This document shows, in pieces, positions 1 to 51,475 of a stretch of DNA of 64,000 bases. The number at the start of each line of letters is the position of its first letter. The first letter of the stretch is position 1. This DNA comes from a bacterium (GTDB taxonomy: Bacteria > Patescibacteriota > UBA1384 > XYA2-FULL-43-10 > JAKAMI01). A program made the position numbers and the translations under genes. The DNA is taken from NCBI GenBank assembly GCA_021812945.1, contig JAKAMI010000001.1, positions 3,637 through 67,636 of the forward strand, in the 5' to 3' direction. Below the pieces are notes generated by a model. It worked only from the letters and a program-made list of their open reading frames with translations. It was not told where the DNA came from and searched no databases.

Positions 1-2137
1 CGTAGCGTTCGTCGTTGGTGATCAGGCCGCGTTGATACTGTTGGTTGATCTGAGCCAGAGATTTTTCGGCTTTGGTAATGATCTCGCCCTTGGCATCCGG
101 GACTTGGATGTCGTCGACCGAGAAGGTGATACCCGAGTAGCCGGCATATTTGAATCCAACGTCCTTCAAGTCATCCACCAGTTGGCTGGTCCGCTCGACT
201 CCGTATTCGCGGAAAACTCGAGCCACCAAAGCCGAAACACCTTTGCGGTCAAAAAGATAATTTTGGAAACCCAATTCCTCCGGAAAAATTCGGTTCAGGA
301 TAATGCGGCCGACCGAGGTTTCAACCATCTCCCCCTCCTGCCGGACCTTGATTTTGGCCTGAATCTTGATAAATCCGAGATTGAAATAGGAATAGGCTTC
401 ATTGAATGAATTAAAAACTTTGCCTTCGCCCCTGAGACCTTCTTTAATGTATGAAAGAAAGTAGCAGCCAAGAACAATGTCTTTCTGGGGGGTGACTACC
501 GGCTCGCCAGAGGCGGGTTTCAGAAGGTTTTTTGAGGAAAGCATGATCTCGCCAGCCTCTTTTTGGGCTTGCTCGGACAGCGGAATATGGACAGCCATCT
601 GGTCGCCGTCAAAGTCGGCATTGAAAGCGGTACAAACCAGCGGGTGTATCTGGATGGCGCGGCCTTCTATCAGTTTCGGTTTGAAAGCCTGGATACCCAG
701 ACGGTGAAGCGTGGGGGCGCGATTCAACAGGACATAATGGTTGTCTGTAATCTGCTCCAAAATATCCCAAACGAAAGATTCGCCTCGCTCGATAAGCCGG
801 GTGGCGTTTTTGACGTTGTGGACATAGCCGTCGGCTATCAGCCGGCCGATAACAAAAGGTTTAAACAGTTCCAGAGCCATTACTTTCGGCAAACCGCATT
901 CGTTGAGCTTGAGATTGGCGCCGACTACAATAACCGAACGACCGGAGTAATCGACTCGTTTACCCAAAAGATTTTGGCGGAAACGCCCTTGTTTGCCGCG
1001 AAGCATATCGGAAAGAGACCGTAATTTTCGGCGATTGCCGGTGGCTTGAGCTACTTTGCCTTGTTTGGCTGAATTATCTATGAGCGAATCGACGGCTTCC
1101 TGCAGCATCCTTTTTTCGTTGCGGCAGATAACTTCCGGTGCGCCTTGATTGACTAATCTTTTCAGTCGGTTGTTGCGGTTTAGGACTCGGCGATAAAGGT
1201 CGTTTAAGTCCGAGGCGGCAAAACGGCCGCCGTCAAGCTGAACCATCGGCCTTAGATCGGGCGGTAAAACCGGCAGCCGTTTCAGGACTAGCCAATCGGG
1301 CTTAATCTCAGCCTTCTTCATATTGGTAAAAATCTTCAAGCGTTTTAGGGCTTTGCGTTTGTTGGCGCCAATGGCTCTTTCGGCTTCCAGCTTGAGGTTT
1401 TCGATTTCTTGGTCAATGTCGATGGTTTTGAGGAGCTCGAAAACCGCCTCGGCGCCGATCCCGACTTTGACTATAGAGCCGTAATTGATGGAAAGATCGT
1501 GGAATTTGGCTTCGGAAAGTATAGTTCGAGGGGCAAGTGATTCCAGCTCAGACTTGGCGGCCTTGTAGGCGGATTCCATCCGAGCGACTCTCAGATCCAG
1601 ACTTCCGGAGGCATCCTTAAGTTCCATCTCGCGCTTTCGATTTTCTTCGTATTGATTCTTGAGTTCCTCCAGAGCCTGCATTTTCAACTCCTCGTCGACT
1701 TTGGTCACGATAAAGGAAGCAAAGTAGATAACCTTCTCAAGCGCTGAAACCGGCAGGTCGAGAATCATCCCCATGACACTGGGCACGCCGCGAACATACC
1801 AGATGTGGGTAACCGGCACGGCCAGGTCGATGTGGCCCATCCGGACACGGCGGACATTGGAGCGGGTGACTTCGACTCCGCACTTATCGCAAACTACGCC
1901 CTTGTAGCGAACTTTGCGATATTTGCCGCAATAACACTCCCAGTCCTTGGTCGGCCCGAAAATGCGTTCGTCAAAAAGACCGTCGCGTTCCGGTTTTTGG
2001 GTGCGATAGTTGATAGTTTCCGGTTTTAGGACCTCACCGTGAGACCAACCCAAGATTGCATCCGGGCTGGCAATAAGCAAACGGATTGCATCGAAATCAG
2101 TCGATGTCACCTGATCTTTTACTTCGACTTTCTCCAT
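1..2137 (-). CDS. rpoC: DNA-directed RNA polymerase subunit beta' (partial, 3' end beyond window)
   Basis: The reverse complement of 1..2137 is one open frame with no stop. It runs off the window, so it is absent from the ORF track. It starts at the ATG ending at 2137, preceded by AAAAGAGGAG. Translation begins MEKVEVKDQV.... It contains the zinc-binding CYCGKYRKVRYKGVVCDKCGVEV and the universal catalytic motif NADFDGDQMAVH, encoded around 590-650. Confidence 0.93.
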   Translation of the reverse strand, partial: MEKVEVKDQVTSTDFDAIRLLIASPDAILGWSHGEVLKPETINYRTQKPERDGLFDERIFGPTKDWECYCGKYRKVRYKGVVCDKCGVEVTRSNVRRVRMGHIDLAVPVTHIWYVRGVPSVMGMILDLPVSALEKVIYFASFIVTKVDEELKMQALEELKNQYEENRKREMELKDASGSLDLRVARMESAYKAAKSELESLAPRTILSEAKFHDLSINYGSIVKVGIGAEAVFELLKTIDIDQEIENLKLEAERAIGANKRKALKRLKIFTNMKKAEIKPDWLVLKRLPVLPPDLRPMVQLDGGRFAASDLNDLYRRVLNRNNRLKRLVNQGAPEVICRNEKRMLQEAVDSLIDNSAKQGKVAQATGNRRKLRSLSDMLRGKQGRFRQNLLGKRVDYSGRSVIVVGANLKLNECGLPKVMALELFKPFVIGRLIADGYVHNVKNATRLIERGESFVWDILEQITDNHYVLLNRAPTLHRLGIQAFKPKLIEGRAIQIHPLVCTAFNADFDGDQMAVHIPLSEQAQKEAGEIMLSSKNLLKPASGEPVVTPQKDIVLGCYFLSYIKEGLRGEGKVFNSFNEAYSYFNLGFIKIQAKIKVRQEGEMVETSVGRIILNRIFPEELGFQNYLFDRKGVSALVARVFREYGVERTSQLVDDLKDVGFKYAGYSGITFSVDDIQVPDAKGEIITKAEKSLAQINQQYQRGLITNDERY

Positions 2138-2162
2138 TATGAACTCCTCTTTTAATGGGAAC

Positions 2163-2265
2163 GGTGACCTCCACTGATCAATTCCACTGATAAGCCACTC
2201 CTGCCTGCAGGCAGGCAGGCAGGGATCCTGTAGCCTAATCTGTGGTGTTAATCTGTGGCGGTCAC
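2163..2265. repeat. Inverted-pair palindromic element, GGTGACC/CCACWGAT family copy A, with central CTGCAG-centred palindrome CCTGCCTGCAGGCAGG
   Basis: Left arm GGTGACCTCCACTGATCAATTCCACTGAT, right arm TAATCTGTGGTGTTAATCTGTGGCGGTCAC. Each arm is a near-reverse-complement of the other and carries two 9-mer direct repeats. It sits in the rpoB-rpoC spacer, directly before the rpoC RBS. Confidence 0.7.
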
Positions 2266-2277
2266 TTCATCAATTTA

Positions 2278-5200
2278 TTAGTCTGCAACCTCGTCCGGAG
2301 CGGCAACGACATCTTCTTCCGGAGCGGTTTGACCGGCAGCGATCTCGGTGATTTCTTCGTCTATCTCCTCGGTTGATTCCTCTTCTTCAAGTCTGGTTTT
2401 TTCTTTAAGCTCAAGTTTCAGCTTGTCCGGACCCTCGGTGCCGACCCCTTCGCCCATAATATCGACCGAAAGACCCAAACTCTGTAACTCCTTAACCATA
2501 ACGTTAAAGGCTTCGGGCAAGTTCGGTTTCTGAATTTTCTCTCCCTTGATAATTGACTCGTAAGCACGGCTGCGACCGATAACATCGTCCGATTTAATGG
2601 TCAGCATTTCCTGTAAAGTGTGGGCGGCGCCATAGGCTTCAAGCGCCCAAACTTCCATTTCGCCGAATCGCTGGCCGCCGAACTGGGCTTTGCCGCCGAG
2701 CGGCTGCTGGGTGATCATGGAGTATGGCCCGACGGAACGGGCATGCATTTTATCTTCGACCAAGTGGTGAAGTTTCATCATATAGATAACCCCGACCACG
2801 GTTTTCTGATCAAACGGTTCGCCGGTGCGGCCGTCGATCAACTGGACTTTGCCGTCTTCGGTTAAGCCGGCCTCTTTCATCATCGGTTTAATGTTGTCAA
2901 AACTGATACTTTCAAAGACCGGCAAAGCTATTCTCTGATTGGTTTCTTTGGCCACCCAACCAAGATGAGTTTCCAAAATCTGGCCGATGTTCATCCGCGA
3001 GACCACGCCAAGCGGATTCAAGACAATGTCGACCGGCCGGCCATCCGGCAGGTATGGCAGGTCATGGACAGGCAAAACCTTGGCGATAACGCCTTTGTTG
3101 CCGTGTCGTCCGGCAAGCTTGTCGCCGACGGAAATCTTTCGAAGCTGAGCCACGGCTACTTCAACCCTTTGGTAAACGCCGCTCGGAAGTTCGTCCTGAT
3201 TTTCTTTGGAAAATATTTTGACTTCAACCACCTTACCCCGTTCGCCGTGTGGCAGACGCAAGCTGGAATCGCGGACATCCTTGGCTTTTTCGCCGAAGAT
3301 GGCGCGAAGCAGTCTTTCCTCGGCCGAAAGTTCGGTTTCACCTTTAGGCGAGATCTTGCCGACCAGAAGGTCTCCGGCAGAAACTTCGGCGCCGATTCGG
3401 ATAATGCCTTCTTCGTCCAGATTGCTCAAAGCCTCTTCTGAAACATTTGGGATATCTCGAGTCAGGATCTCGGGGCCGAGTTTGGTATCGCGAACTTCAA
3501 GCGAATATTTTTCAATATGGACCGAAGAGAGATTGTGTTCTTCGACCAGTTTGTCGGAAATGATGATAGCGTCCTCAAAGTTGGCTCCGCCCCAAGACAT
3601 AAAGGCTACGACCAGATTTTTACCCAGAGCCAACTCACCCTTGTCGGTAGCTGAGCTGTCGGCCAAAAGGTCGCCTTTTTTCACTCGGTCGCCCAAAGTC
3701 ACCCGAGGGGTCTGGTTAATGCAGGTTCCCTGGTTTGAGCGGACAAATTTTTCGAGATAATAGTCGTGTTTCTCGCCGTCTTCGGATTTGACCCGAATCA
3801 GATCGGAGGAAACATGGGTGATTTCGCCTTCGAATTGAGTGGTCAAAATCTGACCGGAGTCGGCGGCAGCTGATTTTTCCATGCCGGTCCCGATCATCGG
3901 AGCTTCCGGTTTGATCAGAGGTACGGCCTGACGTTGCATGTTCGAACCCATGGAAGAACGCGCAGCGTCGTCATGCTCGATGAAAGGGATAAGAGCGGCA
4001 GTAATAGAGACAATTTGCTTCGGAGTAACGTCCATAAAATCGATGTTTTCGACCTCGTAAATAGCCGGATCGCCTTGGTGGCGAGCGATAACTTTGGGTT
4101 CGGTGAAGTGGCCGTCTTTGTCGACTTCAACTGAGGCCGGAGCAATGTAAGCCCGTTCTTCCTGTCCGGCATCCAGATAGACAATCTTGTCGGTGACCCT
4201 AGGGGCTTTGCCTTTGACTTTCTCAACCGTTCGATACGGGGTTTCGATGAAACCGAATTCGTTGATCTTGGCATAGCTGGAAAGATAGCCGACCAAGCCG
4301 ATGTTTTGGCCTTCCGGAGTCTCGATGGGGCAGATCCGGCCGTAGTGCGAGGTGTGAACATCGCGCACTTCGAAGCCGGCGCGGTCGCGGGACAACCCTC
4401 CGGGACCGGTGGCGGACAAAGTCCTTTTGTGTTCCAGCTCAGCCAGCGGGTTGGTCTGATTCATAAACTGCGACATTTGGGACGAGGCGAAAAATTCCTG
4501 GAGAGCGGCGGCGATGGGCCTGGAGTTGACCAGCTGGGCCGGAGTGACAGTCGCCGGTTCGTTGACCGACATGCGATCCTTAACTATTCGTTCGACACGC
4601 AGAAGTCCGATCCTAACCCGTCCCTGAACCAGCTCGCCCACGGTTCGAACTCGGCGGTTTTTGAGATTGTCAGTGTCGTCCGGTTCGGCGTCGGGCGTAT
4701 TATTTAATCGAATGATCTCTTTGACAATGGCCACAAAGTCTTCTTTGCGCAAGACTCGATTTTCGGGAGTGTTCTCGACATTTAGATCCAGTCGTTGATT
4801 CATTTTGTAACGCCCAACCCGACCCAGATCATAACGCTTGGGATTGTAAAACATGGATTCGATGAAGAGTTTGGCGCTTTCGAGCGTGGCCAAATCCCCC
4901 GGGCGGATCTTTTTATAGACCTCGATCAGGCCGGTATTTTGATCTCTGGCGGTATCTTTTTCCAGGGTTTTCTCGATGTATTTAAGATCCGGATTGTCGT
5001 CTACATCAGTGAAAAGCGCTTGAATTTCGTCGTTGAAGTTGTAACCGAGTGAGCGCAAAAAAGTCGTTACCGGAATACGTCTTTTGCGGTCGATTTTGAC
5101 CGAGACTACCCCTTTGGCGTTTGTTTCGAGTTCGAGCCAAGCTCCACGGTTCGGGATAATCTTAGCTCCAAACAGCTTGCGGCCGCCGAATTCTTCGGCG

Positions 5201-5634
5201 GTAAAGAGCACGCCGTAAGACCGGACAATCTGAGAGACAACCACCCGTTCGACTCCATTGATGATGAAAGTGCCTCGGTTAGTCATCACGGGGAAATCGC
5301 CAAGAAAGACTTCGCCTTCTTTGATCTCGTTGGTTTCTTTATTGACCAAAGTGGTCTTGACCTTAAGAGAGGTTTTGTAGGTGAGATTTTTGTGTTTGGC
5401 GGTCTTCTCGTCAATTTTGGGTTTCTCCAGGTAGAAATCGTTAAACGAAAGAGAGAGTGACCGTCCCGAGAAATCCTCTATCGGGGAGATCTCATTCAAA
5501 AGCTCCCTCAGCCCCTCCTTGAAGAACCAATCGTAAGACTTGGTTTGAACTTCAATCAGATTCGGGAGGCTGACATCAGCCGAGGCGTTGCTTTTCGACA
5601 ACACCACCCGAGAAGAATTGTGATTCTCTTTCAT
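2278..5634 (-). CDS. rpoB: DNA-directed RNA polymerase subunit beta
   Basis: 1118-aa ORF with a typical RpoB N-terminus (LPNLIEVQTKSYDWF) and conserved blocks (GEMEVWALEAYGAAHTLQEMLT, NMQRQAVP). Confidence 0.97.
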   Translation of the reverse strand: MKENHNSSRVVLSKSNASADVSLPNLIEVQTKSYDWFFKEGLRELLNEISPIEDFSGRSLSLSFNDFYLEKPKIDEKTAKHKNLTYKTSLKVKTTLVNKETNEIKEGEVFLGDFPVMTNRGTFIINGVERVVVSQIVRSYGVLFTAEEFGGRKLFGAKIIPNRGAWLELETNAKGVVSVKIDRKRRIPVTTFLRSLGYNFNDEIQALFTDVDDNPDLKYIEKTLEKDTARDQNTGLIEVYKKIRPGDLATLESAKLFIESMFYNPKRYDLGRVGRYKMNQRLDLNVENTPENRVLRKEDFVAIVKEIIRLNNTPDAEPDDTDNLKNRRVRTVGELVQGRVRIGLLRVERIVKDRMSVNEPATVTPAQLVNSRPIAAALQEFFASSQMSQFMNQTNPLAELEHKRTLSATGPGGLSRDRAGFEVRDVHTSHYGRICPIETPEGQNIGLVGYLSSYAKINEFGFIETPYRTVEKVKGKAPRVTDKIVYLDAGQEERAYIAPASVEVDKDGHFTEPKVIARHQGDPAIYEVENIDFMDVTPKQIVSITAALIPFIEHDDAARSSMGSNMQRQAVPLIKPEAPMIGTGMEKSAAADSGQILTTQFEGEITHVSSDLIRVKSEDGEKHDYYLEKFVRSNQGTCINQTPRVTLGDRVKKGDLLADSSATDKGELALGKNLVVAFMSWGGANFEDAIIISDKLVEEHNLSSVHIEKYSLEVRDTKLGPEILTRDIPNVSEEALSNLDEEGIIRIGAEVSAGDLLVGKISPKGETELSAEERLLRAIFGEKAKDVRDSSLRLPHGERGKVVEVKIFSKENQDELPSGVYQRVEVAVAQLRKISVGDKLAGRHGNKGVIAKVLPVHDLPYLPDGRPVDIVLNPLGVVSRMNIGQILETHLGWVAKETNQRIALPVFESISFDNIKPMMKEAGLTEDGKVQLIDGRTGEPFDQKTVVGVIYMMKLHHLVEDKMHARSVGPYSMITQQPLGGKAQFGGQRFGEMEVWALEAYGAAHTLQEMLTIKSDDVIGRSRAYESIIKGEKIQKPNLPEAFNVMVKELQSLGLSVDIMGEGVGTEGPDKLKLELKEKTRLEEEESTEEIDEEITEIAAGQTAPEEDVVAAPDEVAD

Positions 5635-5841
5635 AAACCCTCGAAGTTAATTAAGACCTGAAGACCTGAAAATGACCACCTGAAGCGGTCAAATTAAAAG
5701 ATTAATTGAGTACTGCTTAAAGCCAAGGCTGGTTCGCAATTTATCTAATAATGCTTTTATTTTTACAATCTAAACATACCACAGCAAAAGCTGCATGTCA
5801 AGCGCATAAATTTGTCCCCTAAAAAAAGCTCATCACCTACT

Positions 5842-5869
5842 ATTTTAGAGGTTATTAACTTCTTGTCAA
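5842..5869 (-). promoter_or_regulatory. Sigma-70-like promoter for rpoB-rpoC (-35 TTGACA, 16-nt spacer, -10 TAAAAT) with a ~200-nt leader
   Basis: Minus-strand reading TTGACAAGAAGTTAATAACCTCTAAAAT. Motif read by eye. Confidence 0.4.
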
Positions 5870-5880
5870 TAGCCACGCTC

Positions 5881-5940
5881 AAGTCCGAAGGTGTGAAGCT
5901 ATTACACATCCGATGTGTAATAGCTTCACACCTTCGGACA
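5881..5940. terminator. Long perfect hairpin (25-bp arms) downstream of obg, upstream of the rpoB promoter
   Basis: TCCGAAGGTGTGAAGCTATTACACA-TCCGA-TGTGTAATAGCTTCACACCTTCGGA. Confidence 0.55.
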
Positions 5941-5974
5941 TTTTTGAGATTTGAGGCTGAAGGGTTGCTAATAG

Positions 5975-7033
5975 TTAGAGCGATTCAAGGAGCTGTTTGG
6001 TGCCGAGGTGGGTGGAAGCAGAGAGAGCTAATATCATAGAGCCCTTGAGAGCTTTTTGGAGAATGTTCAATTTCTTTCGGAGATCTTTTTCGTCAATAGT
6101 TTCTATCTTACTCAAAACCACTATCTCTCTTTTTGAGGTTAATTTTTTGCTGAATTTTTCCAGTTCCGATCTGATTATTTTATAATCTCGCAACACGTCG
6201 TCGCTACCGGCGTCAATTAAATGAATGAGAGTTTTGGTGCGTTCGATATGGCGTAAAAACTTATCACCAAGACCTTTCCCTTGGTGAGCGCCTTCAATCA
6301 GCCCGGGGATATCGGCGATAACGAATTCTTTTCGGCCAATCTTGGCCACTCCGAGATTGGGCGAGAGAGTGGTAAAAGGATAATCGGCAATCTTCGGTCC
6401 GGCATTAGTAATGACAGACAATAATGTTGATTTTCCGGCGTTTGGCAGGCCGATGATGCCGACATCGGCTATTAATTTTAACTCTAAAAACAATTCCTGC
6501 TTCTCGCCCGGCAAACCCTCTTTGGCCCACTGCGGAGCCTGTTTGATCGAAGTCTTGAAATGCCAGTTACCCCAACCGCCGTTGCCGCCTTTGGCGATGT
6601 TTAATTCTCGATTCTCGGCGGTGAAATCAAATAGTAATACTTTATTGAGTGGATCCCGGGTCAAGCCCGGGATGACAAAAGAAGAGTCAGGGATGACAAA
6701 AGAGGAGTCGAGGGTGGCAAAATGAGAAGATTTTAAATTTTTGATGTATATCTGAGTCCCGACAGGGACTTTGAGAATGAAGTCCTCCCCGTTTTTACCC
6801 TTTTTTCGATCGGTCATGCCGTTTTGACCGTCCTCGGCTTTGAAATAGCCGATTCGGTCTAGGTCGGTCAGAGTGGTGACATCGCGGTGAGACACTAAAA
6901 TTACGTCGCCGCCGCGGCCTCCGTCGCCGCCGTCCGGACCGCCTTTGGGACGATATTTTTCACGCAAAAAAGAAACGGCTCCGTCGCCGCCTTTTCCCGC
7001 CTCCACCTTGATTTTTGTTTGGTCTAAAAACAT
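5975..7033 (-). CDS. obg: GTPase Obg
   Basis: Obg-fold N-terminus (MFLDQTKIKVEAGKGGDGAVSF), G1 GIIGLPNAGKSTLL, G3 DIPGLIEGA. The ORF-track start at 7075 is a read-through extension over the upstream palindromic element. The ATG at 7033 gives the canonical N-terminus. Contains an in-frame 21-bp tandem duplication (DSSFVIP x2). Confidence 0.9.
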   Translation of the reverse strand: MFLDQTKIKVEAGKGGDGAVSFLREKYRPKGGPDGGDGGRGGDVILVSHRDVTTLTDLDRIGYFKAEDGQNGMTDRKKGKNGEDFILKVPVGTQIYIKNLKSSHFATLDSSFVIPDSSFVIPGLTRDPLNKVLLFDFTAENRELNIAKGGNGGWGNWHFKTSIKQAPQWAKEGLPGEKQELFLELKLIADVGIIGLPNAGKSTLLSVITNAGPKIADYPFTTLSPNLGVAKIGRKEFVIADIPGLIEGAHQGKGLGDKFLRHIERTKTLIHLIDAGSDDVLRDYKIIRSELEKFSKKLTSKREIVVLSKIETIDEKDLRKKLNILQKALKGSMILALSASTHLGTKQLLESL

Positions 7034-7043
7034 AATATTGAAC

Positions 7044-7110
7044 GGTGACCGCCACTGATCAATTCCACTGATCATTGGGTTAATCTGCGGTATAGATCTG
7101 CGGAGGTCAC
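7044..7110. repeat. Inverted-pair palindromic element, GGTGACC/CCACWGAT family copy B
   Basis: GGTGACCGCCACTGATCAATTCCACTGATCA ... TAATCTGCGGTATAGATCTGCGGAGGTCAC. Lies between the LysM-CHAP gene stop and the obg start. Confidence 0.7.
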
Positions 7111-7125
7111 TGTTACAATTTTTTA

Positions 7126-8043
7126 TTAGTAAATGAAGCCCTTGACTGCGTATGGTGACATGGTGCGTGAACTCACAATCCCCCAGCCTTCGTAGTTCAT
7201 CTCGGTAGTCGTAAATGATCCGTCCGAGTTCACTCCGGTGACAACCCCGACATGTCCGGCCCAGCTTTCACCCGTGACAAAGACCGCTCCAACCCGAGGC
7301 GTTGTTCCAGTCGACATACCCCGAGCTTGAGCGTTTCTATACCATTGTCCGCCATTTCCCAGCCCACCGGGAACCCCGGCGACTTCGGCGGCATATTCCG
7401 TACAATAACCCGGCGCATAGCCCATGCCTCCAAAACCGAGCCTTCGTCCGTTGTTTGAAACTGTGCTGGCGTCTCGGCTTGAACTCGAGCTTCTGGTGGT
7501 GGTAGCGCGACTAGCCAAGGCCAGTTTCTTGTCTTTTTGGGCTATCTTGCTCTCAGAAACCGTGTAACCTACCGGAGGAACCTTAAGACTTTGGCCGGGT
7601 TGTATAGAGTCAACATCGGTAATATCATTTACATACTTAAGAGAGGCTAGTTCCACTCCGTATTTCCAGCCGATACCGGAGAGAGTATCACCGCTTCCCA
7701 CGGTGTAGTTGATGGTTTTAGAGCTGTTGTCAAGAGCGACAGGCGCGGCAGCGGCCACGGTCCTATCGGTACGGTCGGTAATGTTGGTCAAAACAACCTG
7801 CTGCTTTTCCAAATAACCGTTGCTCAAAGCCAGAGTAGTGTTGGTTTCAGCGTCATAAATAGCGGCATCGTTGCCGATGGGGGTATACTTATCTACTTGG
7901 CCGATAACGGCGCGGGTTGTTTGGGGATCGGACATAGCCAGGCTGAACGAACCATCGGCTTTGGCGGCGGAGATATTGCTAAGTCCCGCCATGAGAGCAA
8001 AAGTTAGAATCCCAGCATGAGGTAAATACTGCCTCTTGGACAA
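7126..8043 (-). CDS. Secreted peptidoglycan hydrolase, LysM domain plus C-terminal CHAP domain
   Basis: Signal peptide, LysM (TVGSGDTLSGIGWKYGVELASLKYVN...QPGQSLKVP), CHAP-like Cys/His (YAPGYCTEYAA ... WAGHVGVV). Apparent TTG start. The in-frame upstream stretch has no ATG/GTG. Confidence 0.75.
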   Translation of the reverse strand: MSKRQYLPHAGILTFALMAGLSNISAAKADGSFSLAMSDPQTTRAVIGQVDKYTPIGNDAAIYDAETNTTLALSNGYLEKQQVVLTNITDRTDRTVAAAAPVALDNSSKTINYTVGSGDTLSGIGWKYGVELASLKYVNDITDVDSIQPGQSLKVPPVGYTVSESKIAQKDKKLALASRATTTRSSSSSRDASTVSNNGRRLGFGGMGYAPGYCTEYAAEVAGVPGGLGNGGQWYRNAQARGMSTGTTPRVGAVFVTGESWAGHVGVVTGVNSDGSFTTTEMNYEGWGIVSSRTMSPYAVKGFIY

Positions 8044-8451
8044 AAGAAAAGTTCGAGTCTTTTGATATTGAGAAACAAGCAGCTCTTTATTTTGTATAAG
8101 ATGATCGACTTGAGCCTGAAAAGCTTTGATCTGGTGACCAATTAGGCTTTTTATATTATTGAATTTATCTTCCAGATTACTATCTTCCGCAGACTGAGGG
8201 CTAGGCTCATCGAGGGCGATAATACTCCTTTCCCTTTCGGGAAACTTAGTTGCAGTCCTCTAAAGACCGCTCATCCACTGACTAGGCGGATGCAAACATT
8301 AACTACAATCGGATACGCGCTCAACCTCAATAAAAAAGGATCCGATCTCCCGCCGCTTAAGCGCAGTCGGGAATCAAGATTCGTAAACTAGTTTACCAAC
8401 CTCCAAAAGGGGTGTCAAGACCTTTAGGCGTGAAATGGTTAGAAATTGAGG

Positions 8452-9666
8452 CTATTTTTGGCCTATAGCAACTGAGAGACTTGAGGGTAGAAACGAAGCC
8501 ACTGTGACTCCGGCTGGAACTTTAAACATTGCGGCGGTAAGATCGACGCCGATACCGCTACTCGTAGATTTATTTGCTAGATCCAAATTTAGAACGACAT
8601 CGGCGGAGGTCAGATTATTCACTAAATTCGCCGGCCCCGAGGCTACGATTTTAACGGCACTCGGGGTATAACCGGTCACCGCAAGACCGGGATTCAGATT
8701 GATCGGATTGATAGTCGCAACAATTTCTTTCGAAGTTGAAGTGCCGCTAAACGAAATTGTTACTTTAACCTTCTGGTTGCTGTCTTTTTGCAAAGTTATT
8801 CCCGCTGGCAAAGATAGGGCGACTGTTTTAACCAGAGTATCGCTTTGGCCGGCAATGTCGACAGGAAGTGTCTCGATATATTGGGTGGTTCTCAAAAGTG
8901 AATCCTGGCCGACAACATCGACCGTCGCCGGGTCCACAACAATGTTCGAAACAAAGAAACCGCTGGCTGCCAGGCCGGTGGTGACCGCCTTAACTCCGAC
9001 CGTTTTATTATTTCCTGCTTTAACTATTGTTACATCCGCCTTAGCCGTGGCTGGATTGATTGTGATCTCGTTTATCGCTTCGTTTTTATCATTTAGTACG
9101 GAAAGGGTAATGTCTCGGCTGAAACCGTCCGACTCGCCGTTTAGTTTGACGATGGCCGAGGCCGCCGTAGCTCCCCCAATCAGGCTTTTGGGGCCGGAAA
9201 TTTCGACTTTATCGGGAGTAAAATCAATGCTACCGATGGTCCGACCGTCGGCAGCCTGGCCGATGATGACTGCCGCCACCGAGACCGTTTTTTTCTCAAC
9301 CGGTTCCAACCGCACCATAATATTGGCCGGATCGACTTCTATGACCGAAACATTTGGCAGGTTCGGATTGACTATTACTTTAAGGTTGTGAGTTCCGGCG
9401 GCCAGACCGTTTAAGTCCACAAAAGCTGAAAAATTGTCGCTCGAAAGCTGTTTCCAGACGCTTGGATCGGCGGCAATCTTTAAGTTCACTTCTTTGGTAT
9501 CGTAAATAGCGGAAAAGTTGGTCGGGACATTGACCGCTTTGACCGGGATGCTTCCCGGGAATTTGGCGACATTGTTCTGAGCCGCGGCTACAAAAACCCA
9601 CAAACCCAGCGCCAGGAGCAGGGCAACTATTTTCATACCCAGATTGTGTGTTACCAGCCTAATCAT
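8452..9666 (-). CDS. cdaR: CdaR/YbbR-like regulator of diadenylate cyclase (repeated YbbR domains, N-terminal TM)
   Basis: 404 aa with an N-terminal TM helix, then repeated beta-rich YbbR-like segments. Immediately downstream of cdaA, as in cdaA-cdaR operons. Confidence 0.7.
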   Translation of the reverse strand: MIRLVTHNLGMKIVALLLALGLWVFVAAAQNNVAKFPGSIPVKAVNVPTNFSAIYDTKEVNLKIAADPSVWKQLSSDNFSAFVDLNGLAAGTHNLKVIVNPNLPNVSVIEVDPANIMVRLEPVEKKTVSVAAVIIGQAADGRTIGSIDFTPDKVEISGPKSLIGGATAASAIVKLNGESDGFSRDITLSVLNDKNEAINEITINPATAKADVTIVKAGNNKTVGVKAVTTGLAASGFFVSNIVVDPATVDVVGQDSLLRTTQYIETLPVDIAGQSDTLVKTVALSLPAGITLQKDSNQKVKVTISFSGTSTSKEIVATINPINLNPGLAVTGYTPSAVKIVASGPANLVNNLTSADVVLNLDLANKSTSSGIGVDLTAAMFKVPAGVTVASFLPSSLSVAIGQK

Positions 9667-9667
9667 C

Positions 9668-10507
9668 TTACTTTTCTTTCTTTAGGTTGCTTCGGAAATG
9701 TCTCGCAAGCTGCGACCTTAGCTCCTCGGAATCTAGTTTTCTTTGGAGTCGGCCTTCAATCGCTAGCGACATGGTCCCGGTTTCTTCCGAGATAACGATG
9801 ATAATGGCGTCTGAGAGCTCGGAAAGGGTCACAGCAGCTTTATGCCGCGTGCCCAGGCCCATATTTTCCAGAGAATCGCCGATAGGCAAAGTGCAACCGG
9901 CGGAGATGATCTGATTGCCGACGATAATGGTTGCTCCGTCGTGAAGCGGTGATTTCGGAAAAAATATCGAAAGCAATAACTCCGCCGAAACTTTCGCCTC
10001 CAAACTGACACCACTTGAAATATACTCTCCCAGAGCCGTTTTTCTCTGGATGACAATGAGAGCGCCGATTTTCTGGTCTGACAAAACTTCGGAGGCAGTC
10101 ACTAGTTCGTTGATTAGTTTTGTCTGTCCGGATCTGGATAATGATGATAGATCGGACAAAAACTTGGCGCGGCCAAGCCGTTCCAGAACCGCCCGAAGTT
10201 CCGGCTGAAAAACTATCGGAATAGCTACGACCAGCATAGTCATAAGATATTTTAGAATCCAGTTGAGTAGTACCAAATCCAGAACCCGGCCGATAATAGC
10301 CAAAATACCCAAAAATAAGAAACCATAGAGAATCCGCATGGCCCGGGTTTCTTTGAGGAATACATAGATCCAGTATATGAAAACCGCTACGATAAGGATG
10401 TCGAGAATCATAAAAGGCGTTATGGCCATCGACAAACTATCCCAGAAATAACTGGCCTTATCAAACGAACCGAGTACTTGTCCAATCTCAACCATTACCC
10501 TCCACAT
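9668..10507 (-). CDS. cdaA: Diadenylate cyclase CdaA (c-di-AMP synthase)
   Basis: Three N-terminal TM helices and a DAC domain with motifs GALIVIQ, PLHDGATII, LGTRHKAA, ISEETG. Confidence 0.88.
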   Translation of the reverse strand: MWRVMVEIGQVLGSFDKASYFWDSLSMAITPFMILDILIVAVFIYWIYVFLKETRAMRILYGFLFLGILAIIGRVLDLVLLNWILKYLMTMLVVAIPIVFQPELRAVLERLGRAKFLSDLSSLSRSGQTKLINELVTASEVLSDQKIGALIVIQRKTALGEYISSGVSLEAKVSAELLLSIFFPKSPLHDGATIIVGNQIISAGCTLPIGDSLENMGLGTRHKAAVTLSELSDAIIIVISEETGTMSLAIEGRLQRKLDSEELRSQLARHFRSNLKKEK

Positions 10508-10712
10508 GATACTCTTGACCTCAAGACTAGTTCTATTTTAGCAAAACGAGTAGCATAAGCAAACTTTTCCAGGGAAATTTCAATAACCAAGACACAATAA
10601 CCAAAACTAGCTTGATTTAATTTTGTTTGAAACAAAAAAATGAGAGACGAATGAGTAGGCTGGCTAGGGCGGCCGGGAGCGCAGACAAAATCCTTAAGAC
10701 GTTAGAGTTAAA

Positions 10713-12590
10713 CTACTCCACAGTCCTTTTGATTTCGTCAATTCGATAAGCGATGAGTTCATCGTCTTTGAGCACGTCGATCATTCCGGCTACCGAGACG
10801 CCGGTTTCGCTGCCGCTTTTGGCCTCAACCACCTCGTCTTTGCCGGATCGAAGAGTCTCTATCTTGCCGCTATAAACTTCTTTTTCTCCGCGCATTATTT
10901 TGATGAGGTCGTTTCGCTTTAGTTCGCCCGACTCGATCATCCCGCCAAAAATGGTGATTTTTCGGTCGAATCGGAAAGTCGCCAAGACTTTGAGCTTGCC
11001 GGTTTCGACAATTCGTCTTTCGGGCGGCAGTATCTCCGACATCCGGGCTTTAACGTCGTCAATAAGATCATATATGACATCGTATGACTTTATCATAACT
11101 TTTTCGAGTTCGGCCAAGCGCTTGGCGGCACCCATTACGGATACACGAAATGCTAAAAGTAACGCTTTTGAGGTTGAGGCCATATTTACGTCCGACTCGG
11201 AAACTGCCCCGATCCCTTCGTGAACTATTTGAAGTTTCAGTTCGGGATGGCTGATAGCGTTCAAGGTTTGCTTGATGGCTTCCAACGAGCCTTTGACGTC
11301 GGCTTTAACCACCAAATTGAATTCATAAACTTTCACGTTTCCTTCACTTTCGCTTGAAACAATCTTTTTGGCTGAGACAAAATCACTGGCCGCTTGTTCG
11401 CGGTATTTTTCGGCTTGATCCTTGGCTTCTTTTTCGGATTTAACCACCAAAAGTCGATCTCCGAATGTCGGTAAACCGTTTAGTCCCGCCATTCGAACCG
11501 AGGTACTTGGCTTAGCTTCCGCAATCGGCCGATCTAATGTATCCGTTAGTATTCGAACCTTACCCCAGTATTTTCCCACAACCACCGACTGACCCTTGCG
11601 GAGCGTACCGTTTTCCACCAGCAAGATCGCCAGCGGTCCTGAGCCTTTATGCATGTGGGACTCGATAACTACGCCGGTGGCTTGCTCGGTTTCGTCGGCC
11701 TGATAATTCTTCAGATCGGCAAAGAGAGCGATGGATTCCAAGAGTTTATCTATCCCCTGTCCGGTCTTGGCCGAGACTTCGACCACTATAGTCTCTCCGC
11801 CCCACTCTTCGGAGGTTAGACCGTGTTCTACGAGTTGCTGTTTAACTTTATTGATATCGGCGCCCGGCTTGTCGACCTTATTGACCGCGACGATGATTGG
11901 AACATTGTTGCTCTTGGCTTGTTCGATAACTTCGACGGTTTGCGGCATGACCCCGTCGTCCGCCGCCACGATAAGGACTACCATATCGGTGATGGCGGTA
12001 CCGTGAGAGCGCATGGTGGTGAAAGCGGCGTGGCCGGGGGTGTCGATGAAGGTAATTTGCCTTTTTTCGTTTTTCTTTAGAGTTACTTCGACCTGAAAGG
12101 CGGAGATGTGTTGGGTGATCCCGCCGGATTCCCCCGCCACCACGTTGGCCCGGCGGATTTTGTCGAGTAGCGAGGTTTTGCCGTGATCGACGTGCCCCAT
12201 TATGGCCACGACCGGTGGTCGGGTGGTTAGTTTCTTGCCGGTTACTTCAATTTTTTGCTGGGCAATATTGGTTTTCTCTTCCTTTTTTTCGACGATCTCA
12301 AAGCCTAGGTCATCACCGATGATCTGGGCGGTCAGAAAATCGATGTTTTCATTTATATTGGCTAGGACTCCGTTTTTCATCAATGCTGAGATAATCGAAG
12401 TTACTGGAAGCGCCATGATATCAGAGAGATCTTTGACCGAAACAACCGCCGGAACTTCTATTTGCTTTTTGACTTTTTTAGGCGCCTCAACCGTCGTTTG
12501 CGTATCAGAAAACCGGCTGACCTGCCCCTCTTGCTTCTTGATCGCCGACGCTTCCTTTTTACTCAGTTTTCGTTTTTGAAACCTTGCCAT
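10713..12590 (-). CDS. infB: Translation initiation factor IF-2
   Basis: GTP-binding VAIMGHVDHGKTSLLD, DTPGHAAF, NKVDK. Domain order typical of IF-2. Confidence 0.95.
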   Translation of the reverse strand: MARFQKRKLSKKEASAIKKQEGQVSRFSDTQTTVEAPKKVKKQIEVPAVVSVKDLSDIMALPVTSIISALMKNGVLANINENIDFLTAQIIGDDLGFEIVEKKEEKTNIAQQKIEVTGKKLTTRPPVVAIMGHVDHGKTSLLDKIRRANVVAGESGGITQHISAFQVEVTLKKNEKRQITFIDTPGHAAFTTMRSHGTAITDMVVLIVAADDGVMPQTVEVIEQAKSNNVPIIVAVNKVDKPGADINKVKQQLVEHGLTSEEWGGETIVVEVSAKTGQGIDKLLESIALFADLKNYQADETEQATGVVIESHMHKGSGPLAILLVENGTLRKGQSVVVGKYWGKVRILTDTLDRPIAEAKPSTSVRMAGLNGLPTFGDRLLVVKSEKEAKDQAEKYREQAASDFVSAKKIVSSESEGNVKVYEFNLVVKADVKGSLEAIKQTLNAISHPELKLQIVHEGIGAVSESDVNMASTSKALLLAFRVSVMGAAKRLAELEKVMIKSYDVIYDLIDDVKARMSEILPPERRIVETGKLKVLATFRFDRKITIFGGMIESGELKRNDLIKIMRGEKEVYSGKIETLRSGKDEVVEAKSGSETGVSVAGMIDVLKDDELIAYRIDEIKRTVE

Positions 12591-12643
12591 AACTTACACA
12601 AATCTTATTCACAAATATCGCACAAATCAAAGACTGAAACAGC

Positions 12644-12718
12644 GACCTCTACAGATCAACTCCACCGATAAATCACTGATCCTGTCCCGATCTGTGGAAT
12701 TAATCTGTGGCGGTCACC
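12644..12718. repeat. Inverted-pair palindromic element, GGTGACC/CCACWGAT family copy C
   Basis: GCGACCTCTACAGATCAACTCCACCGAT ... GATCTGTGGAATTAATCTGTGGCGGTCACC. Lies between the gyrA stop and the infB start. Confidence 0.6.
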
Positions 12719-12814
12719 ATCCATATACTGATTAGAAGCATAGCACAAACCCCCCGTAGCTACAAGCTGGGGCAAAAACTTTCATCTTAGAGTACATCTA
12801 GGGTAATTGACTGA

Positions 12815-12850
12815 TGACTGATGACTGATGACTGATGACTGATGACTTTA
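12815..12850. repeat. Heptamer microsatellite (TGACTGA/GATGACT) x5-6
   Basis: TAATTGACTGATGACTGATGACTGATGACTGATGACTGATGACTTT, downstream of the gyrA stop. Confidence 0.85.
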
Positions 12851-12868
12851 GAACTTTCTACTTTTAGG

Positions 12869-12912
12869 ACATGAGATTGCCACGTCGATGACTCCTCGCA
12901 ATGACGAAGGGA
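12869..12912. repeat. ~40-bp dispersed repeat (GAGATTGCNACGTCGATGACTCCTCGCAATGACGAA), copy 1
   Basis: Near-identical to 54078..54120. Directly 3' of the gyrA stop. Confidence 0.75.
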
Positions 12913-12916
12913 GGGG

Positions 12917-15900
12917 CTATTGTTTTCCCCAATAGTTGGGTTCGTCGAAGAGTTTTTTGGAGGGTTGCTTTGGGGCGGGTTTCTTCTCCTCCTCAACATC
13001 TGCTTTGACTTTAGGATTATAAGTATTTACTTTAAAAATTGAAGGTTGGTTGAGATTCTCAGGCCAGGTCTTACCTTCTTCAGTATCGTCGACTTTATCG
13101 GGCTCAATAATGTCGGCCGGAGTTGTTTCCGATTCGACTGGTTTTGGGGGTTCTTTGTAAGTATTTATTTTGATCTCCGGACTTAGTTTTGGTTCGTTTT
13201 GTTCTTCTGGTTCATCGGTCTGGATTCCTGCCTTCGCAGGAATGACAGAGGGAGAGGCAGAAATGACAGTAGGGGTGGGTTTAGTCGGAATCGGTTTTGC
13301 TTTTAGTTTGGTGTCAGATATCGTCTTTTTGACTAAATCGATTGTTTCCGATTTTTGTTTCGCGACTGGTTCGGATTTTGAAGATTCGGACTGGATTCCT
13401 GCCTCCGCAGGAATGACAGGGTGAGAAGCGGAAATGACAGATGGGGAGGCAGTAATGACAGAAGAAGGGGAATCAACCTTTTTCGTTTTGGGTTTGGCCT
13501 CAATATCGGCCGGTTTGTCATGAGATGTTTTGGGCGGATTGCCTTTCGGGGGCTTGACCTCGCAAACTTGGTCTTCGGGTTTTTCTTCTTCCGGACGGAT
13601 GATGGTGACGGAAGAAACTCGGTCGTCGGTCAGGCGCATCAGAGTCACTCCCTGGGTGTCGCGTCCGAGCCGTTTGATAGTGGAGAGTTTCATCCGGATA
13701 ACTTGGCCGTTTCTGGAGGCTAGAACCACATCACCCAAGTCGTCGTGGATTATGTGCATACCGATAAGATTGCCGGTTTTCGTTGTGCAGTTAGCGGCCT
13801 TGATCCCGACCCCGCCGCGTTTTTGCAGGTGGAAATGCTTGAGCATAGTTCGCTTGCCGTAACCGTTTTCCAGAACCACCAGCATATCAGGAAAGCCGGA
13901 TTTTGGCGCATAGTCGGTAAATGGCGACAGAGCTTTCTCGACTACATCGACCCCCATGACAAAGTCGCCCGGCCGCAGGTTGATGCCGCGGACTCCGGCC
14001 GCCGACCGGCCCATAGCTCGAACATCGGTCTCCGGGTAGCAAATAGCTTGACCCTTGGAGCTGACTTGGACTATGACCGAGTCGCCTTCGGTCAGTTTGA
14101 CCCATTTGAGCTCGTCGGCTTTGTTGAGTTTGATAGCGATAATGCCGGACTTTCGAACGTTTTTATAGGCTAGGACTTGAGTTTTCTTGACCACGCCCTT
14201 TTGGGTCGCCATAAAGAAATACTTTGACTCGTCCAGTGCATTTTTCTTGACCATCAAAAGTGTGGTGACTTTCTCGTTCGGCGCCAGCTGGATAATGTTG
14301 ACCAAAGCCACACCTTTGGCCTGGCGTCCCGAAGCCGGAATCTCGTAGACCTTGGTTCTGAACAATCGCCCCTGATTGGTGAAGAACATCACGTCGTCGT
14401 GAGTCGAAACGCACAGCAGATGCTCGACGGCGTCTTCTTCCTTGGTCGTCATCCCGGTCACGCCCTTGCCGCCGCGAACTTGAGAACGATAAGTGTCGAC
14501 CGGTAAACGTTTAATGTAGCCGCCGGTGGTCAGGGTGACGATGACCTGTTCGTCCGGAATCAAGTCCTCGGCGGTGAATTTGCCGATGGCTTGCTCGACG
14601 ACTTGGGTCCGACGCTTATCGCCGTATTTGGTCTTGATCTCGTTTATTTCGGTTTTAATCAGAGCCAATATTTTGGCTGGATTGTTGAGTAGATCTTCCA
14701 GATAAGCGATCAGCTTGAGTTTTTCTTGGTACTCATCCTCGACCTTTTGCCGCTCTAAGCCGGCCAAAGCCGAGAGTCTCATCTCTAAGATGGCCGAGGC
14801 TTGTTTGCCTGAAAGACCGAAACGAGCCATCAAGTTCTTGTGGGCCGTTTCTTTGGTGGTTGATTTCTTGATGGTCTCGATAATCTCTTCGATGTGGTCA
14901 AGAGCGATCTTCAAGCCTTCGAGAATATGAGCCCGATCCTTGGCTTTCAAAAGATCATACTTTGTACGACGAGTTATGACAACTTGTCGATGGGCAATGA
15001 AAAAGCTAATGATCTCCGGCAGACTCATAAGTTGCGGCTCAAGAGAGGGTGTCAGCGCTAGCATATTGACATGAAAAGCCGTTTGCATCTGAGTCAGCTC
15101 GTAAAGCCGGTTTAGGATTTTGTTGGGATAAGCGTTGGCTTTTATTTCGATGACTACTCGGACACCGTTGCGGTCGGACTCGTCGCGAATATCGTAAATG
15201 CCCTCCAGTTTTTTCTCTTGAACCAGGTCGGCAATCTTAGAGATAAGAGTGGATTTATTGACTTGGTAAGGAATCTCGGTGATAACGATGCGAAAGCCCC
15301 GTTTTTGCTCCTCGATCTCGGCTTTGGCGCGGATAACCACCTTGCCCTTGCCGGTAGCATAGGCCTGTTTTATCTCGCTGATGTCATAAATGATACCGCC
15401 GGTCGGAAAATCAGGTCCTTTGACAAACTCCATCAAGTCTTCGACTGTGGCTTCGGGGTTATCTATTTGATAATTTATCGCGTCGCAAACTTCGGTCAGA
15501 TTATGAGGAGGGATATTGGTCGCCATGCCGACAGCGATACCCATGGAACCGTTGAGCAAAAGTTGAGGCACTTTGGCCGGCAAAACTTTCGGTTCTTTCT
15601 TGGTCGAGTCGTAGTTGTCCTGCCAGTCAACCGTGTCTTTGTCAAGGTCAAAGAGCATCTCTTCGGCCATCTTGGTCATGCGGGCTTCGGTGTATCGCAT
15701 AGCGGCGGCCGAGTCTCCGTCCATAGAACCGAAGTTGCCTTGGCCGTCAACCATCTGGTAACGCATCGAGAAATCTTGAGCCATCCGGACCAAAGTATCG
15801 TAAATGGCCATGTCGCCGTGCGGGTGGTAGTTTCCCATAACTTCACCGACAATGGTGGCGGATTTTCTGTATTTGACGTTTGACCTTAACCCCAGATTAC

Positions 15901-18959: not shown

Positions 18960-19022
18960 TATATTGAGATCCTTTCACAAACCTATTGCGCAGATAATAC
19001 CGATTTTGCCTACAAAGACAGT

Positions 19023-19063
19023 CTTTGCAAATGTGTCTAAAGACTGTCATCACTAGCCATCGG
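19023..19063. repeat. REP-like palindrome (AAAGACAGTCTTT family)
   Basis: ACAAAGACAGTCTTTGCAAATGTGTCTAAAGACTGTCATCA, upstream of gyrB. Confidence 0.75.
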
Positions 19064-28132: not shown

Positions 28133-28187
28133 TAATCTGTGGAATTGATCTGTGGAGGTCACCCGTCGATCAGCGGAGTGGCGGTCC
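28133..28187. repeat. GGTGACC/CCACWGAT family copy D (two tandem right-arm units)
   Basis: TAATCTGTGGAATTGATCTGTGGAGGTCACC followed by CGTCGATCAGCGGAGTGGCGGTCC. Overlaps the 3' end of the GT4 gene. Confidence 0.55.
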
Positions 28188-30807: not shown

Positions 30808-30900
30808 ATTTCAGTCATCCTGAGCTTGCGAAGGATCTACCGAAGCGGATTTGTCCGGATGATGACAGTCTTTGCAAATGCCTTTAAAGACTGTCATCAT
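30808..30900. repeat. Degenerate MITE-hairpin copy (TCATCCTGAGCTTGCGAAGGATC) fused to a REP-like palindrome
   Basis: GTCATCCTGAGCTTGCGAAGGATCTACCGAAGCGGATTTGTCCGGATGATGACAGTCTTTGCAAATGCCTTTAAAGACTGTCATCAT in a divergent intergenic region. Confidence 0.7.
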
Positions 30901-33804: not shown

Positions 33805-33817
33805 AATTGCACTCGTT

Positions 33818-33866
33818 TATGCCTAAAGACAGTCTTCACACGCCTAGCAAGACTGTCTTTAGGCAT
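33818..33866. repeat. REP palindrome flanking the RAYT gene (3' side)
   Basis: TATGCCTAAAGACAGTCTTCACACGCCTAGCAAGACTGTCTTTAGGCAT. Confidence 0.85.
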
Positions 33867-34435: not shown

Positions 34436-34505
34436 TTTGACCCTCCATATGTGTATATATGTGTATTATACCACTTATACCACCTGTATTCCAGATTGAC
34501 AGCTT

Positions 34506-34554
34506 TATGCCTAAAGACAGTCTTGCTAGGCGTGTGAAGACTGTCTTTAGGCGT
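34506..34554. repeat. REP palindrome flanking the RAYT gene (5' side, inverted orientation)
   Basis: TATGCCTAAAGACAGTCTTGCTAGGCGTGTGAAGACTGTCTTTAGGCGT. Confidence 0.85.
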
Positions 34555-34636
34555 GAATGGCATCGGGTGCGGATAAGAAAAATCCCTGCATTGCTGCGGG
34601 ATTTTTCTTTTGATCAAAAACAAAAATTAAATCAGA

Positions 34637-51389: not shown

Positions 51390-51475
51390 CCTGAGCTAAT
51401 TTCTGTCATCCTGAGCCTGCGAAGGATCTATTCCATAGACAAAGATTCTTCACTGCATTCAGAATGACAGTCTAA
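51390..51475. repeat. Degenerate MITE-hairpin copy (left boundary of GC-rich islet)
   Basis: ATGTCATCCTGAGCTAATTTCTGTCATCCTGAGCCTGCGAAGGATCTATTCCATAGACAAAGATTCTTCACTGCATTCAGAATGACAGTCT. Confidence 0.65.

Follow-up and report, generated by a model that had tools for sequence, protein, structure and literature searches.

A dispersed inverted-repeat family with hairpin-forming potential in the spacers of informational genes of a Patescibacteria genome, and its presence and absence among relatives

Small palindromic repeats are common in well-studied bacteria, and the genomes of Patescibacteria (CPR bacteria) are small and tightly packed; a literature search found no description of small palindromic repeats for this group. 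The ERIC (IRU) elements of enterobacteria are imperfect palindromes of ~70-127 bp in the transcribed intergenic regions of operons, and by folding within the mRNA they can influence how stable the flanking cistrons are. Both orientations are found, and the elements are broadly conserved within a family of bacteria. The attenuator and cut site of the E. coli RNA polymerase operon is located between rplL and rpoB. The window analysed here, a stretch of 64,000 nucleotides, harbors an inverted-repeat family, the CCACWGAT family, which resembles ERIC in its imperfect palindrome, its location in putatively transcribed operon spacers and its predicted folding in mRNA, but has no sequence similarity to ERIC and is restricted to two or a few species that are close relatives of each other.

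The Correia repeat enclosed elements (CREE or nemis) of Neisseria, of which the mRNA hairpins are bound or cut by RNase III (PMC2649163), are ~70-155 bp in length. Like the CCACWGAT family they are non-coding, with terminal inverted repeats around a core, form discrete internal-deletion length classes alongside solo repeats, are often located just 5′ of genes and sometimes touch the ATG, and differ in presence or absence between relatives (PMC2649163). In contrast to Correia elements, with which it shares no sequence similarity, the CCACWGAT family offers only a hint of a TA duplication and no promoter-like hexamers at the element ends, its host belongs to a Patescibacteria (CPR) lineage, and five full copies have so far been located, versus 100-250 per Neisseria genome. 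REPIN/REP elements likewise comprise two conserved inverted units and a variable spacer, are predicted to form a long hairpin in ssDNA or mRNA, are extragenic and leave singlets as decayed remnants (PMC3116915), and a RAYT gene of the type associated with them is present in the window. However, REP units are short imperfect palindromes with a conserved 5′ tetranucleotide, whereas the arms described here consist of two direct 8-mers, the RAYT gene is flanked by another repeat family, and the CCACWGAT copies are clustered rather than randomly spread through extragenic space.

[quoted passage not shown] 1980, as cited in PMC13001810 and PMC5371410). An earlier reading of the window, made from the sequence alone (hereafter the sequence-only reading), had equated the rpoB-rpoC copy with this attenuator site, which is mistaken, as the E. 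coli site separates rplJL from rpoBC. Both represent a potentially processed RNA hairpin inside an RNA polymerase operon, but the known site is a single conserved locus while the element is a dispersed repeat at rpoB|rpoC, a spacer that is plain and 21-57 nt long in relatives of this organism. The TIGR arrays of TIGR-Tas systems, which are common in CPR bacteria, are built of tandem units of an edge repeat, a variable 9-nt spacer, a loop repeat and a second variable 9-nt spacer, beside or within a tas (Nop-domain) gene (PMC12045711), and resemble the element in their short 8-12-nt repeats of regular period and, in some variants, their stem-loops (PMC12045711; bioRxiv 10.64898/2026.09.09.750476). 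A TIGR array, or a target of one, was nevertheless rejected, since the elements contain conserved 5-nt linkers and no variable spacers, occur as single dispersed copies with rpoB/C, obg, infB and gyrA as neighbours, and no tas gene was seen near them. The CCACWGAT family appears to be a functional analogue of the Correia/nemis, REPIN and ERIC elements with no sequence in common with them.

Structure and copies of the element

A full copy consists of two ~40-nt arms, inverted around a centre that occurs in long, medium and short forms (Table 1). In the three full elements of the window the left arm has the sequence GGTGACC-N-CCACWGAT-YAAYT-CCACWGAT, and its reverse complement forms the right arm; in its general form, an arm comprises an AT-rich end, GYGACC, one variable base, CCACWGAT, five bases and CCACWGAT. 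The 8-mers are direct repeats with a fixed 13-nt period, two per arm or three in the relatives L012 and L005, and the arms with two of them have no internal dyad. The 28-nt arm pattern ATCTGTGGNNTTAATCTGTGGNGGTCAC, with at most three mismatches allowed, matches five arms in the window versus none in 100 shuffles, and a repeat search of the window recovered both arm families (D9 and D13). The ~30-bp arm of the sequence-only reading is therefore real, although an alignment of seven full copies extends the inverted repeat by ~10 nt beyond GGTGACC on both sides (roughly AATWTTGAAC). The two direct repeats that it placed in each arm hold as CCACWGAT, but its single 9-mer, AATCTGTGG, is not enriched in the window (14 matches with at most one mismatch vs 12.7 expected), and the composite arm is the only non-random unit.

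In the same seven-copy alignment the long (~102 nt), medium (~75 nt) and short (~65 nt) forms differ by internal deletions, and the centre holds the conserved blocks ACAGGATC...AGTGGYTTATC. The central CCTGCCTGCAGGCAGG palindrome reported for the rpoB-rpoC copy is present there at 2200-2223, but is not special to it, being a feature of the long form that also occurs in the fusA copy of the same species. The cores span 65-105 bp, far too short for protein coding, with arms of ~30-40 nt that are 95% complementary across the seven copies and with ~8 to 47 nt between the inner half-sites of opposite arms in the alignment.

Table 1. Location of CCACWGAT elements, their remnants and other features in the window, the same species and related contigs
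Feature	Location	Strand	Basis or remark
Full element, long form, rpoB|rpoC spacer	2151..2280, core 2163-2265	-	Sequence; covariance model 95.4 bits
Full element, short form, CHAP-LysM|obg	7032..7125, core 7044-7110	-	Sequence; covariance model 86.2 bits
Full element, medium form, gyrA|infB	12629..12732, core 12642-12718	-	Sequence; covariance model 102.6 bits
Solo arm TAATCTGTGGAATTGATCTGTGGAGGTCACC, no inverted partner	28133..28163	+	1 mismatch to 28-mer arm pattern
Internally deleted arm remnant ATCAGCGG..AGTGGCGGTCC (tentative, weak resemblance)	28169..28187	+	Read from sequence
Full copy, rpsL|rpsG spacer	L014 17841-17905		Same species, outside window
Full copy, fusA leader	L014 19224-19316		Same species, outside window
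Full copy, fusA leader	L012
Degenerate three-repeat copy, fusA|tuf	L012		Covariance model 30 bits
Solo arm, three direct repeats, rpsL|rpsG	L012
One arm, then foreign DNA	L002, after rpmA
Full copy before small ORF	L004		Beside frameshifted integrase-like ORF
Solo arm, three repeats	L005
RAYT gene	33866-34435	-	NF047646 80.4 bits vs cutoff 80; PF01797 1.4e-16
Inverted 57-nt AAAGACAGTCTTT-type palindromes flanking RAYT	33816-33872, 34501-34557
AAGACWGTCTT matches	19015, 28020/28044, 33826/33849, 34514/34537, 46846, 47483/47507
Third palindromic family (GTCATCCTGAGCTTGCGAAGGATCT ... AGATCCTTCGCAAGCTCAGGATGAC)	52214-52284, 56411-56481, 51401-51451, 30810-30860
Perfect 28+28-nt palindrome GTCCGAAGGTGTGAAGCTATTACACATC/complement	5883-5939
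Short-period tandem repeats, intergenic spacers	~12795-12830, 34978-35031, 36502-36529, 58771-58798
RNase P RNA region	55460-56287		RF00010, 124 bits
gyrB with intein	16312-19053		PF14890 (gene call for L006)
ORF of 3893 aa (11.7 kb)	36529-48210

Pfam matches bear out the flanking genes given in the sequence-only reading, namely RpoB then RpoC, CHAP/LysM then Obg, and GyrA then IF-2, all on the minus strand; the IF-2 protein is short (625 aa). The rpoB|rpoC element begins 12 nt past the rpoB stop codon, with its core 25 nt from the rpoC ATG (2137), and the CHAP-LysM|obg element occupies the entire spacer, with its core 10 nt from the obg ATG (7033). The distance of 10-25 nt to the ATG claimed for every copy thus fits these two but not the third, which lies inside a 326-nt spacer, 51 nt from the infB ATG (12590). 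The three full loci are inverted pairs upstream of essential genes, as had been read. The fourth locus, 28133-28187, is not: it combines an intact arm, located directly downstream of the stop codon of a GT4 glycosyltransferase gene (28170-29270, minus), with a tentative remnant in direct orientation to it, which overlaps the last codons and stop of that gene. It was not scored as a full element by the covariance model, and the next start codon, 198 nt away, belongs to a gene for a DUF4012 protein that is not known to be essential. Obg was called as a 366-aa protein from an ATG at 7075, inside the element, while both the Pfam GTP1_OBG match and the sequences of relatives indicate 7033 as the true start, giving 352 aa. 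The 14 additional codons derive from the element, a caution for annotation, as gene callers run Obg this far into it.

Further assemblies of the same species were sampled through exact IF-2 and RpoB matches, namely the MAGs GCA_021842745.1 and GCA_027460745.1 and several ENA/Logan assemblies. Past the left edge of the window, two more full copies occupy the rpsL|rpsG spacer and the fusA leader. A covariance model built from the seven aligned full copies scores 79-103 bits for these copies, which occupy unrelated loci, and recovered no other copy in the rest of the window or in the 9 kb past its right end. Across ~79 kb of the source species there are five full copies and one solo arm, with all five full copies inside one 22-kb block containing gyrA, infB, obg, rpoB, rpoC, rpsL, rpsG and fusA. 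The copies are identical among eight assemblies of the species except for one SNP, and no clear empty-versus-filled allele was found among these eight. Six of the seven full copies share the same orientation relative to the mRNA. A protein search with the 137-aa N-terminus of EF-G yielded fragments only and did not reach the S10 operon of the source species, while a full-length EF-G search showed that the EF-G contig of the source species ends inside fusA. Several independent assemblies of the species likewise end within or just before fusA, beside the leader element (L014 end, L015 end, P0245), and the repeats may cause these contig ends.

Presence and absence among relatives

The named RpoB homologues belong to Patescibacteria/Candidatus Berkelbacteria, and syntenic loci were taken from the closest RpoB and EF-G relatives. 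L012, with an RpoB 86% identical to that of the source species, carries copies at fusA, fusA|tuf and rpsL|rpsG, the positions at fusA and rpsL|rpsG being common to both species. In six relatives (L010/L011, L013, L022, L024, L025 and L026) the family is absent from every syntenic spacer covered by contigs, and scans of L010, L013, L022, L024 and L025 with the covariance model and a regular expression returned zero copies. The rpoB|rpoC spacers of L010, L012, L013, L022, L024 and L026, to which the range of 21-57 nt given above refers, contain no element. The CHAP|obg junction is TAG-ATG in L010 and TAA-T-ATG in L013 (0-1 nt), the rpsL|rpsG gap is 3 nt in both L010 and L025, and the 171-nt gyrA|infB spacer of L010 is likewise without an element. 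As the junctions of 0-3 nt in these relatives lack the element, the elements are insertions relative to those genomes, and the absence at the same spots in other relatives gives the family the look of a mobile repeat rather than of a conserved regulatory site. The expectation of the sequence-only reading that the motif would recur in the orthologous spacers of relatives is thereby largely contradicted, with a single relative sharing two positions, while the small MITE that it listed among the options fits best.

The fusA copies of the two species share a rare terminus, GTAACC...GGTYGC, while their inner parts are opposite in orientation, which fits recombination between the arms. The simplest account of this pair would be one ancestral insertion and a later inversion via arm recombination. 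Solo arms are found in the window (28133-28163), in L002, in L005 and at rpsL|rpsG of L012. A metagenome scan with the arm pattern yielded three true relatives (L002, L004 and L005), all on short contigs, and L003, a chance match inside a coding sequence. The same holds for L001, the only match to the 28-mer arm pattern in a GTDB collection that excludes the source genome, which lies by chance inside a Rhodobacteraceae coding sequence. Neither a scan of a viral collection with the arm pattern nor blastn of the element against phage and plasmid collections gave a match.

Several of these contigs show further peculiarities. The 4-kb contig L004 is a near-perfect palindrome, in which 1250-1500 is the reverse complement of 2540-2800; it is probably an assembly artefact, and its two element matches would therefore represent one locus. 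In L002 (1415-1961), the solo arm after rpmA and the start of the centre are followed by 540 nt of GC-richer foreign DNA that extends to the contig end and includes a 61-aa Cys-rich ORF; this DNA may have inserted into the loop of the element, be carried by a larger element as cargo, or belong to a chimeric contig. The more distant Berkelbacteria MAG L022 carries CACGGAT/ATCCGTG heptamer inverted repeats (TAAGCCCACRGATTTTGACAC...) at 11575-11680 and 13375-13470, directly after the fusA and rpsJ stop codons, in an architecture analogous to that of the CCACWGAT family but with a different sequence. In one assembly of the source species, ACGGAT runs follow rpsG (L015 18395-18450).

Flanks of the form TA...TA can be drawn for w1, w2, s5 and L012-fusA, and a TA target duplication would fit three junctions; these flanks are, however, rich in A and T, and the ends of the element lack an independent definition. 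The predicted empty sites match L013 (TAA-T-ATG) and L024 (TTTTTATG), a match that carries little weight given the AT-rich flanks. The TA target would be formed by the T plus the A of the T-ATG junction, and its duplication would explain how both the stop and the start codon survived insertion into a 1-nt spacer. No transposase bounded by the ends of the element was found in the window or the fetched loci.

Folding, expression context and other repeats

RNAalifold predicts a 24-pair stem with four 1x1 internal loops at fixed columns, two of which are unpaired in all seven copies despite their differing bases; in the hairpin, the W in the middle of an 8-mer is mismatched in most cases. The potential to form the stem is real, as pairing falls to 22-54% when the partners are slid against each other. 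On the alpha-first strand (the alignment orientation) 95.2% of cells are paired, as opposed to 88.7% on the other strand, with 17 G-U cells versus 6 C-A cells. The fold is more stable in the mRNA sense for six of eight copies, with one tie and one copy, the flipped fusA copy, for which it is worse. Minimum free energies are -55.0 kcal/mol (sense) vs -49.2 (antisense) for the rpoB|rpoC core, which with flanks has a z-score of -6.35, -30.1 vs -25.2 for the CHAP-LysM|obg element, and -38.4 vs -27.2 for the gyrA|infB element with flanks. The flipped fusA copy prefers the antisense fold (-28.9 vs -22.8 in sense), and the strand asymmetry therefore travels with the element rather than with the transcript. 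The RNA hairpin suggested in the sequence-only reading is thus predicted, and somewhat better on the mRNA-sense strand, but it gains no support from covariation: the score of 0.121 compares with a shuffled mean of 0.134, 423 of 500 shuffles score at least as high, and only one base pair has changed on both sides. As such, selection on the structure is not supported.

Both rpoB and the CHAP gene are preceded by promoter-like sites of good quality (5869-5842 and 8418-8390, respectively), whereas no promoter-like or terminator-like site coincides with any element, which places the elements within operons. At fusA, a promoter-like TTTACA box and the leader motif AAGGGG-N-TTTTTT are common to the source species, L012, L024 and L025, and the leader element lies downstream of this motif. 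We infer from this arrangement that the copies are transcribed within operons or leaders. At the gathering score, Rfam models detect only tmRNA and RNase P in the whole window, and with E up to 1 nothing in region 1-13500 overlaps the elements. The perfect GTCCGAAGGTGTGAAGCTATTACACATC palindrome lies directly upstream of the best rpoB promoter-like site (TTGACA-16-TAAAAT).

Other palindromic repeat families are also carried by the genome. The REP-associated tyrosine transposase (RAYT) gene is flanked by inverted palindromes of a family distinct from CCACWGAT, whose AAGACWGTCTT motif occurs 10 times in the window versus 0.01 expected, with some of the matches inside a giant ORF (Table 1). The gene and its flanking palindromes look like a REPtron in a CPR genome. 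The RAYT gene shows that the genome supports REP-type elements, although movement of the CCACWGAT family is not thereby shown. A third palindromic family includes two 71-nt copies that are 94% complementary to each other, and GTCATTSC...GAATGAC motifs related to this family are present in L002, in L023 and at 13215-13449, within the called gyrA ORF. The RNase P RNA spans 681 nt for a 367-nt model as a result of two AT-rich ~150-nt insertions, both of the same ~180-nt repeat unit, which is also found just upstream of the gene (55460-55641); every unit terminates in a CUUCCGCGCUUUGCGCGG hairpin that resembles the hairpin at the 5′ terminus of the RNase P gene. The short-period tandem repeats in intergenic spacers include a (TGACTGA)n heptamer run in the gyrA|infB spacer and arrays of ACTTTAYAA with a 9-nt period, among them two identical 28-mers located 22 kb apart, each just upstream of a gene start. 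Similar low-complexity spacers occur in the relatives L022, L023 and L024. The gyrB gene carries an intein, and the 3893-aa giant ORF contains internal repeats and swings in GC skew.

Explanations for the family

We suggest that the CCACWGAT family probably represents a miniature mobile element of the MITE/REPIN/Correia kind, a dispersed and non-coding palindromic repeat specific to the lineage. The multiple copies at unrelated loci, the deletion-derived length classes, the solo remnants and the arm-mediated flip at fusA all argue for a mobile repeat. In the ancestor of the source species and one relative, copies would have entered the very short gaps between genes in the gyrA-infB, obg, rpoBC and rpsLG-fusA block, and later decay would have reduced some of them to solo arms and flipped the inner part of one. 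Because they lie inside transcription units, the copies would be transcribed as parts of mRNAs, in which each may fold into an imperfect hairpin of ~24-30 bp; an effect on the host, if any, would most plausibly be exerted on the mRNA, through processing, stability or translational coupling, as for Correia elements. Against a plain mobile element, the clustering in one 22-kb informational block is unlike random intergenic insertion, with copies of L012 also located in the str operon and that of L002 after rpmA, and plain mobility leaves unexplained why the copies at fusA and rpsL|rpsG have persisted after the divergence of the two species. The clustering, the locations in L012 and L002 and the bias in orientation (6/7) together suggest a target preference or selection for function.

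It is possible, although rather unlikely, that the hairpins are primarily functional cis-acting RNA modules and that their repeat nature is secondary, with intercistronic or 5′-UTR double-stranded RNA recruited to co-ordinate IF-2, Obg, EF-G, the RNA polymerase beta' subunit and S7 through RNase III-type processing, mRNA stabilisation or translational (un)coupling. The ~24-pair stem with its 1x1 loops at fixed positions, the strand bias in pairing and in G-U over C-A cells, the better sense fold of most copies and the co-orientation of six of seven full copies with transcription are consistent with such modules, as are the confinement of all copies to operons or leaders of informational genes in two species and the two positions that these species share. 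Precedents exist in Correia mRNA, a substrate of RNase III (PMC2649163), and in the RNase III cut of E. coli rplJL-rpoBC (PMC13001810). These points are countered by a covariation score no higher than that of most shuffles, by a strand asymmetry that is inherited from the master copy and follows the element in the flipped fusA copy, by the six relatives with the same gene order that manage without the element, and by the solo arms, for which a hairpin is impossible. Persisting solo arms, unexplained by any hairpin role, would instead suit arms that serve as double-stranded DNA operators, with four CCACWGAT sites through which a dimeric or tetrameric transcription factor, or else a nucleoid or partition protein, would control the essential genes next to them. 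The iterated direct 8-mers with a 13-nt period also resemble protein-binding sites, and the mismatched central W is as expected if the duplex site matters rather than arm pairing. Such operators are nevertheless very unlikely: the inner-site spacing of ~8 to 47 nt is incompatible with a fixed multimer across the dyad, a period of 13 bp does not match the helical repeat of DNA, promoter-like hexamers are missing both at the intercistronic copies and immediately downstream of them, six relatives lack the sites in their orthologous spacers, and the isolated 9-mer is unenriched in the window. The operator option of the sequence-only reading is accordingly disfavoured by the spacing, the solo arms, the lack of orthologous conservation and the intra-operonic sites.

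With regard to how a mobile repeat of this kind would have moved, it is unlikely that the element is a true REPIN, mobilised as ssDNA by a RAYT (HUH Y1 transposase) such as that of the window. The presence of this gene, the match of the doublet-plus-spacer hairpin and decayed singlets to the REPIN description (PMC3116915) and a G-T-tolerant strand asymmetry that would suit a single-stranded intermediate all point to this mechanism, but the RAYT is flanked by the AAAGACAGTCTTT family instead, the arms are direct 8-mers rather than short palindromes preceded by a conserved tetranucleotide, and the TA-flank pattern points to a DDE-type, TA-duplicating mechanism. Distinctly improbable, in our estimate, is a domesticated "intercistronic cassette", in which TA insertion at T-ATG and a shared dsRNA hairpin would have created a post-transcriptional regulon, specific to this lineage, that unites translational GTPases, RNA polymerase and ribosomal proteins in a CPR bacterium with a reduced genome. 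Here the duplication would restore the stop codon context and the start codon, the coupled pairs (CHAP-obg and rpsL-rpsG) and the leaders (fusA, rpoC and infB) would become hairpin-separated units, and one RNase or RNA-binding protein would recognise the common hairpin.

Other candidates were considered and rejected. DnaA boxes have only TCCACA in common with the element, and the W variant breaks the likeness. A chromosomal parS or centromere is at odds with the scatter of the copies over operon spacers, and GC skew gave no information on this point. Shine-Dalgarno mimicry was dismissed because 15-33 nt separate the GGAGGU of the 3′ arm from the ATG, and because GGCGG takes its place in two copies. 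No hexamers qualify as a Correia-type outward promoter, and autoregulation by S7 at rpsL|rpsG does not account for the same element at unrelated genes.

If the CCACWGAT family is simply mobile, as we consider probable, even stop-start junctions of 0-3 nt in the essential operons of a small, reduced genome would tolerate insertions of 90-130 bp, and the family may help explain the assembly breaks near fusA in this lineage. There is, furthermore, a modest chance of a more interesting role of the element at the RNA level: if it has been recruited for RNA processing, it would represent a mobile hairpin linking the expression of IF-2, Obg, EF-G, the RNA polymerase beta' subunit and S7.
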